DNA of 64,000 bases, from NCBI GenBank assembly GCA_900553395.1, contig USDJ01000006.1:13863-77862 (forward strand), given 5' to 3'. This document shows positions 121 through 64,000 of the stretch, piece after piece. Position numbers and translations under genes: made by a program. The stretch comes from an uncultured Mycoplasmatota bacterium (lineage in GTDB: Bacteria > Bacillota_I > Bacilli_A > RF39 > UBA660). Under the pieces are notes generated by a model that did no database searches, had not been told where the DNA came from, and saw only the letters and a list, made by a program, of their open reading frames with translations. Position 1 is the stretch's first letter. Every line of letters begins with the position of its first letter.

Positions 121-468
121 TTATTCACAATTACTTTTTTGAAATTTATACGAATAATTTCCGGCTTCAGATTTTATTAGGACTGATCCGGCTAATTTCT
201 GATCATTAATCATATTTTTTAAATTATCAGATTTTATATAGTTTTCACTTAGTAAATACTTTAATTCTACGCATTCAACATCACGATCCATTCCTTCATT
301 TAAATAATAATTTTTAGCAGCTTCTTCTATATTTGCAATTTGAGTTTTAGATAAACTTTTTCTAGAAGACGATATTAAATTCTTTACAGATACTAATGTA
401 ATAGATGCTATTACAGCAAGTATAACTATTACAGATAAAAGTTCTATTAATGTAAATCCCTTTTTCAT
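121..468 (-). CDS. Type IV pilin / pseudopilin-like protein (prepilin N-terminal cleavage-methylation domain)
   Basis: N-terminus MKKGFTLIELLSVIVILAVIA is a class III signal (G|FTLIE) followed by a hydrophobic helix. The size of 115 aa is typical of ComGC/GspG-like minor pilins. Confidence 0.8.
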   Translation of the reverse strand: MKKGFTLIELLSVIVILAVIASITLVSVKNLISSSRKSLSKTQIANIEEAAKNYYLNEGMDRDVECVELKYLLSENYIKSDNLKNMINDQKLAGSVLIKSEAGNYSYKFQKSNCE

Positions 469-17071: not shown

Positions 17072-17995
17072 TTATTCTACCGTTATAACTCTTTTTGATG
17101 ATACCTGATTTCCAGAAGGATCTTTAGCTATATATGTAATAATATATTTATCCTTTACTCCAAAATTTATTTTACCCTCTATGCTTATAGAACAATCACC
17201 ACTATTATCAGTACAACTTACGCCTTCCATTAAGTCATATTCATTAACACTTGAAGATATAGTTGTATTTTCTGGTATTACAAGATTTGGTGCCTCTAAA
17301 TCTTTTATAATTACACTAAAAACTACTACAGTAGAATATCCATAGTCATCTACAACAGTATAATTTACATAATAAATTCCAAGCTTAGTTGTGTCAATTG
17401 TATCAACTATTATATCATTTTTGGTAATATTGAAAACCACTCTGCTTGCCAAATTAGCTCCATCTTTAGAAGTCGCATTATAGCTTGGCATAGAAAAGTC
17501 ACTGCCAAGATTTACACTAACAGTATAATTTCCGGCACTATCCTTATTTAATCCTTCCAGTACAATACTAGGTTTTTGTTCTTTATAAAGAGAAGAAGTC
17601 CTATCATCTCTTTTTATAGTAAATAAATAATCTCCACTTTTTTTAGAATACTTACTCTTACTATATCTATTACTTCCAATATTTTTAATCTCTATAACTA
17701 AGTCATCACTAAAATATTCGCCAGTTTTTGGATCTTTTATATCAGAATCTAGTAAAGATTTCTTTTTTAATTCTCCTACTGTTATATATTTAACATTATC
17801 TCTTTCAGGTAAAAATTCAGCATTTTCTAGCGACCAATTATAAGCTGAGGTTAAAATATCATTTATTTTTTTTTGATATACAGTATCTTTACTACTATCA
17901 GTTACATTTATAATAGCAGGAAGTGTTATAGAGAAAATTACCATCAAAATAACTATAACTCCTAATAATTCTACTAATGTGAATCCTTTTTTCAT
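17072..17995 (-). CDS. Type IV pilin-like protein with two C-terminal Ig-like (DUF5011-type) domains
   Basis: N-terminus MKKGFTLVELLGVIVILMVIFS followed by a GspG/ComGC-like head. The C-terminal half has two repeats of the pattern G.Y.V.Y...D..G......V.V.D...P (GIYYVNYTVVDDYGYSTVVVFSVIIKDLEAP and KYIITYIAKDPSGNQVSSKRVITV). Confidence 0.75.
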   Translation of the reverse strand: MKKGFTLVELLGVIVILMVIFSITLPAIINVTDSSKDTVYQKKINDILTSAYNWSLENAEFLPERDNVKYITVGELKKKSLLDSDIKDPKTGEYFSDDLVIEIKNIGSNRYSKSKYSKKSGDYLFTIKRDDRTSSLYKEQKPSIVLEGLNKDSAGNYTVSVNLGSDFSMPSYNATSKDGANLASRVVFNITKNDIIVDTIDTTKLGIYYVNYTVVDDYGYSTVVVFSVIIKDLEAPNLVIPENTTISSSVNEYDLMEGVSCTDNSGDCSISIEGKINFGVKDKYIITYIAKDPSGNQVSSKRVITVE

Positions 17996-62041: not shown

Positions 62042-62776
62042 TTATTTCAATTTATCCTTGGCTAACTCTATTACTGGACGAACTCCAATTTCTAAATCTC
62101 CTATACCATTTGACTTCAATAAAGCAGATCTAACACTTATAGCATCTGGACTTAAGCCTTCATCGTAGAACCAAGATGATGCCGTTGCTGACCAATATCC
62201 ACCTGTATAGCCAGTATTAGTTATAGGTTTGTTAGGTATACCTAGATCATATTCTTCAACCACCGCTAGAACTCTATCATATAACCAACCTATTTTAGTC
62301 CTTAATTCAGTAGTTGAAAGAGAACCCTGGTTTAAAGTAACTATTTCAGTTTTACCTAATTTGGCAGAAATGTTAGCTATTTCTGCTACTTCTTCTGCTG
62401 TTATAAGTCTTGCATTATACCCTGTATAATCGATAGTATAATCAATTGCGTCACAATCTTGAGAAACACTTATATCACCATCAGAATTTAAATAGCAACT
62501 ATTTGCTGATCTTTTATATGTATAGCTTGTTGGTGTAAGCATACCTTTCCAAGCACTTGTATCATCTTTTAGTGCTTCTAAAGCTGTTATAGGTCCATTT
62601 TTATAATTTGCTACATCACTCCAACTTACTTTATCCAATGTATTATGATCCAAAATTAAAGTTACTCTATCATCAGTACTATTTATAACATAAAATTTTA
62701 AGCAACTATTTTGATACGTGTCTTTATTATCTATTCCATTATATCCTGATGCGCTATTTCCATAATCTGTTACCAT
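62042..62776 (-). CDS. Surface-domain ORF lacking its own signal peptide; probably the C-terminal part of the upstream pilin-like gene (shifted -1 at an A7 tract)
   Basis: The C-terminal pattern GGYWSATASS...AISVRSALL.....GVRPVIEL recalls extracellular domains common in gut Firmicutes (I recall DUF6273-type, not verified). There is no RBS and no hydrophobic N-terminus. Its ATG lies inside the A7 tract at the end of ORF 62770-63330. Confidence 0.6.
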   Translation of the reverse strand: MVTDYGNSASGYNGIDNKDTYQNSCLKFYVINSTDDRVTLILDHNTLDKVSWSDVANYKNGPITALEALKDDTSAWKGMLTPTSYTYKRSANSCYLNSDGDISVSQDCDAIDYTIDYTGYNARLITAEEVAEIANISAKLGKTEIVTLNQGSLSTTELRTKIGWLYDRVLAVVEEYDLGIPNKPITNTGYTGGYWSATASSWFYDEGLSPDAISVRSALLKSNGIGDLEIGVRPVIELAKDKLK

Positions 62777-63330
62777 TTTTTTGTACTATCTTCATAAGAG
62801 AGAATAGTGAAAGTTTCATATTCTCCAAGAGACTTCTTATACTCAGTCTCACTACACACCTTACCATTTTCCACATCAAAATACACTACATCCCCTGATT
62901 TATATGCACGTGTATTTAAATTCTTACTAGCTACTAGAATGCCGTTAATAGTTGAAACATTATATTTATATTTAGGAAAATATAAATTATTTATGCTCAC
63001 TACCCTATTATCCTCTATATCAACACTACCACTTGTCGGTTTAGTATTTTCTACATCTACTAATAATGTTTCGGAACAAGCATCATTTATACATAAATTA
63101 CCATTTTGATTTACAATATAAGTCCCATTTTCTAAATCAAATTTAATATCTGTCTGTCTAATTGATATTGCTTGATCCACAGCATCTATATAGAATTCTG
63201 CACTTCTCAACGTTGCATTCTTTCTAGAATCATGAATCATATTTTGTACTATTGGAACAGCTATCAAAGCTATTATTGATAGTATAACTAGTACTGCAAG
63301 AAGCTCTATCAGTGTAAAACCTTTTTTCAT
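62770..63330 (-). CDS. Type IV pilin-like protein (prepilin N-terminal domain), possibly the N-terminal part of a longer frameshifted gene
   Basis: MKKGFTLIELLAVLVILSIIALIAVP. RBS GGTGATAAT is upstream. The ORF ends ...ACA AAA AAA TGG TAA. Confidence 0.75.
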   Translation of the reverse strand: MKKGFTLIELLAVLVILSIIALIAVPIVQNMIHDSRKNATLRSAEFYIDAVDQAISIRQTDIKFDLENGTYIVNQNGNLCINDACSETLLVDVENTKPTSGSVDIEDNRVVSINNLYFPKYKYNVSTINGILVASKNLNTRAYKSGDVVYFDVENGKVCSETEYKKSLGEYETFTILSYEDSTKKW

Positions 63331-63345
63331 ATTATCACCATTTTA

Positions 63346-63377
63346 AGTATATAAAAAGTTTGACGAATTGTCAAACT
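63346..63377 (-). promoter_or_regulatory. Composite element: terminator hairpin overlapping a promoter-like TTGACA-N17-TATACT upstream of the pilin gene
   Basis: Hairpin AGTTTGAC-GAATT-GTCAAACT (63357-63377) followed by TTTTT. On the minus strand TTGACA (63374-63369) and TATACT (63351-63346) are spaced 17 nt apart. It is a near-copy of 55987-56018. Confidence 0.4.
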
Positions 63378-63404: not shown

Positions 63405-64000
63405 TTACTTTAATTTATCTTTAGCTAACTCTATTACAGGACGAACTCCAATTTCACTGTCATTTATACCACTCGATTTCAATAAAGCAGGTCTAACACT
63501 TATAGCATCTGGATTTAATTCTTCATTGTAGAACCAAGATGATGCCGTTGCTGTCCAATAGCCGCCTGTAAGACTGAAATCGGTTATAGGCTTATTTGGT
63601 ATAACTAGTTCGTACCCTTCAGATATTAAGACTCTGTCATATAACCAACCTACTTTAGTCTTTAATTCATCTGTTGAGATAGAACTTTGATTTAAAGCAA
63701 CTATTTTGGTTTTACCTAACTCAGTAGAAATATTAACTATTTTTGCTACTTCTTCTGCTGTTATAAGTCTTGCATTATATCCATTATAATCAATAGCATA
63801 GTTTATTGCATCACAAGCTTGAGAAATGCTTGTATCATCATCAGAAGTTACGTAACAACTATCTTTCTCTCTTTTATATGTATAGTTTGTTGGATTAAGT
63901 ACTCCTTTCCAATCTTTTGTATCATTCTTCAATACATTAAGAGCTGTTACTGGACCACTTTTATAATTCGCTGTCTCGCTCCAGTGTACCTCGTCTGATG
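63405..64000 (-). CDS. Paralog of ORF 62042-62776 (same surface domain); 5' end lies outside the window
   Basis: The reading frame stays open to position 64000 (SDEVHWSETANYKSGPVTALNVLKNDTKDWKG aligns with LDKVSWSDVANYKNGPITALEALKDDTSAWKG). The C-terminus GVRPVIELAKDKLK is identical in both copies. The start given in the track is only an in-frame TTG. Confidence 0.7.
   Translation of the reverse strand, partial: SDEVHWSETANYKSGPVTALNVLKNDTKDWKGVLNPTNYTYKREKDSCYVTSDDDTSISQACDAINYAIDYNGYNARLITAEEVAKIVNISTELGKTKIVALNQSSISTDELKTKVGWLYDRVLISEGYELVIPNKPITDFSLTGGYWTATASSWFYNEELNPDAISVRPALLKSSGINDSEIGVRPVIELAKDKLK

Follow-up and report, generated by a model that had tools for sequence, protein, structure and literature searches.

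A pilin-like surface-protein gene of an uncultured Mycoplasmatota bacterium split at a seven-adenine run, probably a recent frameshift allele

The window examined here is a stretch of 64,000 nucleotides (nt) from the genome of an uncultured Mycoplasmatota bacterium (GenBank assembly GCA_900553395.1, contig USDJ01000006.1, positions 13,863 to 77,862 of the forward strand). Towards its end two open reading frames (ORFs), both encoded on the minus strand, meet at a run of seven adenines (A7) and are preceded by a short intergenic module and by the 3' part of a related gene (Table 1). The upstream ORF encodes a protein of 186 amino acids (aa), given in the ORF listing as MKKGFTLIELLAVLVIL...YEDSTKKW, which matches the prepilin N-terminal methylation motif PF07963 with 30.8 bits (cut-off 21.2). 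The downstream ORF encodes 244 aa (MVTDYGNSASGYNGIDNK...GVRPVIELAKDKLK in the same listing), starts with ATG GTA ACA GAT and has no Pfam match. In the reverse complement of 62700-62860 the junction reads ...TAT GAA GAT AGT ACA AAA AAA TGG TAA CAG ATT ATG G..., with TGG TAA as the end of the 186-aa ORF, and since the ATG of the 244-aa ORF takes the last A of the A7 run, this second ORF is read in the -1 frame and shares 7 nt with the first. At the overlap a heptamer A_AAA_AAA stands in zero-frame phase, with a stop one codon beyond it. No Shine-Dalgarno (SD) sequence was seen on reading the 20 nt upstream of the 244-aa ORF (TTATGAAGATAGTACAAAAAA), and the N-terminus of the encoded protein is hydrophilic (MVTDYGNSASGYNG). 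A first-pass annotation of the window had described this same layout, namely the end of a pilin-like ORF, an ATG formed with the last A, the -1 frame and a slippery heptamer followed by a stop, and had noted that the downstream ORF possesses neither a ribosome-binding site (RBS) nor a signal or hydrophobic N-terminus; the layout is confirmed in the sequence, and the 20-nt upstream reading and the hydrophilic N-terminus bear out the second point.

Table 1. Positions of the two halves of the broken gene, the A7 run and the upstream elements in the 64,000-nt window.
Feature	Position	Strand	Remarks
3' part of the intact tandem paralog	63405..64000	minus	corresponding site reads GTA AAA GAA ACA
Intergenic module upstream of the broken gene	63346..63377	minus	hairpin and promoter-like site, overlapping
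Terminator-like hairpin of the upstream paralog	63377-63357	minus	
Promoter-like site TTGACA-17-TATACT	63374-63346	minus	intact; 11/12 match to sigma-70-type
RBS GGTGA	just before the ATG at 63330	minus	intact
5' half of the broken gene	62770..63330	minus	186-aa ORF with prepilin-type N-terminus MKKG/FTLIELL; first 185 residues of the 429-aa intact protein, then a W and a stop from the shifted frame
A7 homopolymer	62776..62782	minus (T7 on plus strand)	1-nt deletion site; junction of the two ORFs
3' half of the broken gene	62042..62776	minus	244 aa, -1 frame; covers intact-protein residues 186-429; start codon corresponds to the internal Met186 codon of the unbroken gene; neither RBS nor signal peptide

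The two ORFs are the halves of one gene, which encodes a protein of 429 aa. The tandem paralog extends past the end of the window and is, in full, a single ORF of 428 aa (G000:C6:77267-78553). The joined ORFs align with it from end to end at 70% identity and without a gap at the junction (window, STKKMVTDYGNS; tandem paralog, NVKETVTDYGNS), and in the DNA alignment the broken gene lacks one base where the paralog has AAAAGAAA. The genome contains two further paralogs with the same architecture, of 368 and 371 aa, each in a single ORF. When the read-through sequence was compared with a collection of 5.8 billion proteins, a protein of 429 aa and 97% identity was found (P0001), to which a second one of the same length (P0123) was added by cluster look-up; the same 90% cluster also contains both window ORFs. 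These two proteins are encoded as single ORFs on contigs of other metagenome assemblies (L037 and L038), in which synteny is kept (FtsW-family gene, 428-aa paralog, ortholog of the broken gene, rpsO, pnp, and HIT). Over 1609 nt the DNA identity to the window is 99.0% for L038 and 97.6% for L037, and the single gap is an eighth A: both contigs read ACA AAA AAA ATG GTA (A8), with the surrounding 160 nt otherwise identical to the window. A single ORF was also found in all paralogs listed and in the 120 homologs listed. The first-pass annotation had proposed a fusion of about 430 aa with the junction STKK-MVTDY, to be checked against orthologs and against the complete paralog beyond 64000. Both comparisons have now been made: the two syntenic orthologs and the paralog, gapless through the junction, give the length that had been expected, and the orthologous proteins contain the junction as such (...YEDSTKKMVTDYGNS..., reading STKKMVTDY).

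In the intact surface protein a prepilin-type N-terminus, with a cleavage/methylation motif and a long hydrophobic helix, is followed by a pilin-like beta region and then by a C-terminal domain, which is ~280 aa long and ends in GVRPVIE. Its N-terminus has the type IV prepilin-like combination of a G/F-x-x-x-E motif and a hydrophobic helix and scores above the curated cut-off (P0123 versus TIGR02532, 34.2 bits, cut-off 16.3). The family profile matches the alpha-1 helix of solved pilins (E = 1.8e-6 to 2.8e-5), and among solved structures this N-terminal helix was the only match, with nothing for the C-terminal domain. An AlphaFold2 model of the intact ortholog (mean pLDDT 77.7) displays an N-terminal helix of 53 residues (7-59) followed by the pilin-like beta region, and beta strands at 168-174 and 184-190 flank the junction; a whole-chain Foldseek search of the PDB with this model returned nothing at E of 0.001 or below. 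In an alignment of 73 members, invariant columns occur upstream of the break (Y143, G146, Y150, V153, G156, and C159) as well as downstream of it (C210, F213, Y214, L225, L227, D228, and H229, among others). With invariant residues on both sides and beta strands flanking the junction, neither half is a plausible autonomous domain.

The C-terminal module carries the motifs GYNGI-N, LILDHN, GYW-ATASS, and GVRPVIE. Six of the 73 homologs match DUF6273 (PF19789; best E = 2.7e-5) and one matches Lcl_C (PF07603); no match to either family was obtained with the 244-aa ORF of the window or with P0123. These matches suggest that the domain may be distantly DUF6273/Lcl_C-like, and its role is presumably binding. 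The genome also encodes a prepilin peptidase (Peptidase_A24 at C9:39991-40320, 57.3 bits), PilB-type (T2SSE) ATPases on contigs C9, C3, and C7 and PilC-type (T2SSF) platform proteins on C9 and C3, which makes processing of the protein and its presentation on a pilus or pseudopilus plausible; from this gene content we infer that export would proceed through the genome's own prepilin peptidase and pilus machinery. The genus possesses a large and variable multigene family of proteins with a prepilin-type N-terminus, which differ in their C-terminal modules and range in length from ~115 to more than 2000 aa. About 12 members occur in the window genome, including those at 121-468(-) and 17072-17995(-) of the window, and among the relatives (genomes G001-G025) up to 60 matches were counted in a 1.3-Mb genome, a striking investment for such small genomes.

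Homopolymers are a classical site of base-calling and consensus errors. If the true sequence were A8, the gene would be intact in the window strain too, a reading to which a slim chance is given. The contigs with A7 are all 100% identical over 1609 nt; they could share one read set, and may therefore derive from one sample and not be independent observations. However, A7 is present in three differently produced assemblies, namely the window genome, the NCBI metagenome-assembled genome GCA_902477035.1 (L039/L047) and a Logan contig of SRR1761699 (L048). In addition, the whole assembly was screened for ORFs of at least 100 codons that abut at a homopolymer of at least 7 nt (at least 6 for G/C). 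Sixteen of the 17 places retrieved are ordinary gene starts, in which an RBS is followed by ATGAAAAAAA, so that the assembly appears to have no systematic homopolymer problem; the remaining one is the split gene. That only one gene is split in this way, despite 1525 A/T runs of length 7 and 439 of length 8 genome-wide, argues against a systematic error, and a sequencing error at this site is considered unlikely.

The genome (1.16 Mb, 27% G+C) is rich in such runs. A sense-strand count in 873 long ORFs gave 974 A7 and 275 A8 runs, the latter distributed over 227 of the ORFs, and AAA represents 79% of the Lys codons. Runs of A7 and A8 are so common that the heptamer at the junction is not statistically special; the site stands out by the two long ORFs that abut there. 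As regards run lengths in general, A/T runs of 6-8 exceed the i.i.d. expectation (for length 7, 1525 observed versus 797 expected) and those of at least 9 are depleted (52 versus 106 expected for length 9; 5 versus 38 for length 10), as would be expected if tracts longer than 8 nt, being prone to slippage, were selected against. Runs of nine A are rare (12 on the sense strand of the 873 long ORFs); the pilin-like gene at 17072-17995(-), of 307 aa, contains one in frame (17866-17874, around codon 40), so that slippage or phase variation would a priori be sought in this gene before the A7/A8 site, although as a single case it is not significant.

The frequency of these runs also bears on programmed recoding, in which full-length protein would be made from the A7 allele either by -1 ribosomal frameshifting on A_AAA_AAA, the mechanism named first in the title of the first-pass annotation, or through an extra A inserted by a slipping RNA polymerase. 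Several traits of the site are compatible with it: the heptamer is correctly phased with respect to the zero frame, a shift to the -1 frame would allow perfect re-pairing of both Lys tRNAs, the stop is only one codon away and compensatory low-level frameshifting at indels is known (PMC5009743). However, a single frame encodes the protein in orthologs and paralogs, hence the two-frame arrangement is not conserved, and ~974 other A7 runs within genes would be equally slippery. The stimulatory hairpin for which a search had been suggested was looked for by folding the 96 nt that start at the site, and neither a hairpin nor a pseudoknot was found downstream (-5.1 kcal/mol versus a shuffle mean of -7.15, z = +0.95); no GGAGG-like or SD-like stimulator was seen on reading the 20 nt upstream of the heptamer. 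In Escherichia coli A_AAA_AAA is a weak shift site, much below A_AAA_AAG, and efficient RNA polymerase slippage in bacteria has been described on runs of 9 A or T (reviewed in PMC5009743), longer than the run of 7 present here. With a weak heptamer, an arrangement that is not conserved and no stimulatory structure on the one hand, and a run below the length documented for efficient slippage on the other, both forms of recoding are very improbable.

The state of the site in related sequences gives an indication of the direction of the change. A7 is found in the window, L039, L047, and L048, and A8 in L037 and L038. A homolog from another lineage, obtained from a Hadza gut metagenome (P0002), reads GTA AAA AAA ACA at the site and thus keeps A8 in frame. 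In all three strains GTA AAA GAA ACA is found in the paralogs, and most of the more distant relatives encode V-K-E-T (AAA GAA ACA; AAAAGAAA). All compared sequences other than the A7 contigs keep the frame, with either A8 or an A-rich stretch of the same 8 nt. It is likely, from these comparisons, that a GAA-to-AAA change created the A8 run and that one A was then lost in the window strain. When L037 and L038 were taken as mutual references, the codon changes specific to the window lineage amounted to one that is unambiguous (T381S) and one that is ambiguous (codon 323); with only one or two such substitutions and with the promoter-like site and RBS intact, the deletion is recent and the gene undecayed.

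A separate observation concerns L037, in which about 25 of the 37 differences from the window are clustered within ~200 nt (L037:3880-4080, P0001 codons ~294-360). Identity to the window is 81-90% in this patch and 96-100% elsewhere, a mosaic pattern that points to possible recombination between this gene and some other member of the family. As a source of the patch, gene conversion by the neighbouring paralog of L037 was considered and rejected, as this paralog is only 83-85% identical there and in its present form is not the donor.

The same strain comparison can be read as adaptive phase variation, which would refine the explanation preferred here and involve the same mutational mechanism, slipped-strand mispairing, as in documented switches: the A8/A7 tract would be a selected contingency locus that mediates high-frequency ON/OFF switching of the pilin-anchored surface protein within populations. 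This reading is less likely, although it deserves more weight than the error or recoding hypotheses. The tract is a homopolymer in a coding region, a change in its length toggles the frame, and its length differs between very close strains (99.0% identity) without other decay. The product belongs to a large and variable family of surface proteins, the usual target of such switches; A8 also occurs in frame at this position in the P0002 lineage, and a switch with A8 as the ON and A7 as the OFF state is documented for vaa (PMC2831843). On the other hand, no sign of selection for mutability was seen: A8 runs are not unusual in this genome, as shown by the counts above, and the ~12 pilin-like genes show no enrichment in long runs (2 runs of at least 8 in 13.9 kb versus ~0.43/kb genome-wide). 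The tract is not conserved in the family, most relatives having AAA GAA ACA, and it is located in the middle of the gene, not near its 5' end. A7 was seen in one strain background only. A search of JGI metagenomes for tract lengths in more strains, with an exact flank pattern allowing a variable gap and with a protein-guided scan, found none. The presence of MutS in the genome (MutS_V match at G000:C8:39337-39888(-), inside an open frame of 862 aa) is a further point against such switching; loss of mismatch repair as a driver of slippage was rejected on account of the same frame. It is thus doubtful that an A8/A7 contingency locus switches individual pilin-anchored members of the family; if it did, slippage on A7 might give traces of full-length protein in the OFF state.

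The broken gene is most probably a recent A8-to-A7 replication-slippage frameshift allele, null or OFF and reversible in principle, of one surface-protein gene. The species-typical ACA AAA AAA ATG would have arisen where most relatives have AAA GAA ACA, and one A would then have been lost in the window strain, most likely by slipped-strand mispairing at replication. Translation from the intact promoter and RBS would stop after residue 185 plus a W, which would leave a truncated pilin-like fragment and a C-terminal domain that is not exported; an allele with such an outcome would be null or OFF. Any product re-initiated at the Met186 ATG would be expected to remain cytoplasmic, and reversion from A7 to A8 would be possible in principle. 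We infer both the slippage mechanism and the loss of function. Ribosomal or RNA polymerase slippage on A7 may provide a low level of full-length protein; adventitious slippage of this kind would probably amount to a percent or less, as a by-product and not as a designed mechanism. Of the four mechanisms offered in the first-pass annotation, the homopolymer length polymorphism is therefore the one that stands (A7 here, A8 in two strains), whereas programmed frameshifting and transcriptional slippage are not upheld and a sequencing error is unlikely.

For annotation purposes, both ORFs should be described as a single gene with a frameshift (pseudogene or OFF allele) and not as a pilin and an orphan protein, nor as a recoding site. 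The case also illustrates how an AT-rich genome may make its own mutational hazard, since the GAA of relatives changed to AAA gives A8, from which a base is then lost in one strain. Mixtures of A7 and A8 in populations, if they occur, would give a first indication that pilin-like surface proteins of these uncultured gut bacteria vary in phase through homopolymers, and A7/A8 phase variation, if true, would represent a known mechanism in a new host.

Several known systems resemble the locus in part. The -1 frameshifting of the dnaX/IS911 type, based on A_AAA_AAG, an SD sequence and a hairpin, shares with the junction an X_XXY_YYZ lysine heptamer and a downstream ORF in the -1 frame; however, the junction is devoid of stimulators, its Z base is A instead of G and its orthologs are single ORFs. 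Rescue of frameshifted genes by transcriptional slippage has been described for poly(A) tracts of Buchnera and Blochmannia and for tssM of Citrobacter rodentium (PMC4256274). These genes and the broken gene have in common a poly(A) indel in an otherwise intact-looking gene of an AT-rich reduced genome, but the run is of 7 here, efficient slippage being described on 9 (PMC5009743), and the present case is known from DNA. As for the protein itself, type IV pilin-like proteins that bear large C-terminal domains (non-core minor pilins and pilus-presented adhesins) have the same class III signal peptide (G/FTLIE), long N-terminal helix and globular C-terminal module. In comparison with these, the C-terminal module described here has no Pfam match of its own, and no fold match resulted from the whole-chain Foldseek search.

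The closest parallels are found among genes in which a short homopolymer changes length by one nucleotide. In vaa of Mycoplasma hominis A8 corresponds to Vaa+ and A7 to Vaa-, with switching at 1e-3 to below 1e-4 (PMC2831843). As in the broken gene, A8 is in frame and A7 out of frame, the tract lies within the sequence that codes for a surface protein, the genome is small and AT-rich, and a change of 1 nt truncates the product. In contrast, vaa has its tract close to the 5' end and its reversible switching has been measured, whereas the tract of the broken gene is in mid-gene (codons 183-186) and cannot be told apart from the hundreds of A8 runs elsewhere in the genome. Across A8/A7 or T8/T7 tracts the same paper cites precedents for switching at 1e-3 to 1e-6, for instance Campylobacter coli flhA (T8 to T7 at 3e-4, T7 to T8 at 7e-6). 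Comparable alleles include Listeria monocytogenes inlA (A7 to A6) and Bacillus subtilis swrA (A9/A8) (PMC2831843; PMC2831863-type examples). For inlA, flhA, and swrA, phenotypes and measured frequencies have been reported, whereas the broken gene is known from metagenome assemblies only. In all of them, as in the broken gene, a surface or motility gene is inactivated through a strain-level indel of 1 nt within a short run of A or T, and the origin is probably replication slippage. The split gene is thus a real but ordinary feature, which belongs to the already known class of homopolymer frameshift alleles.
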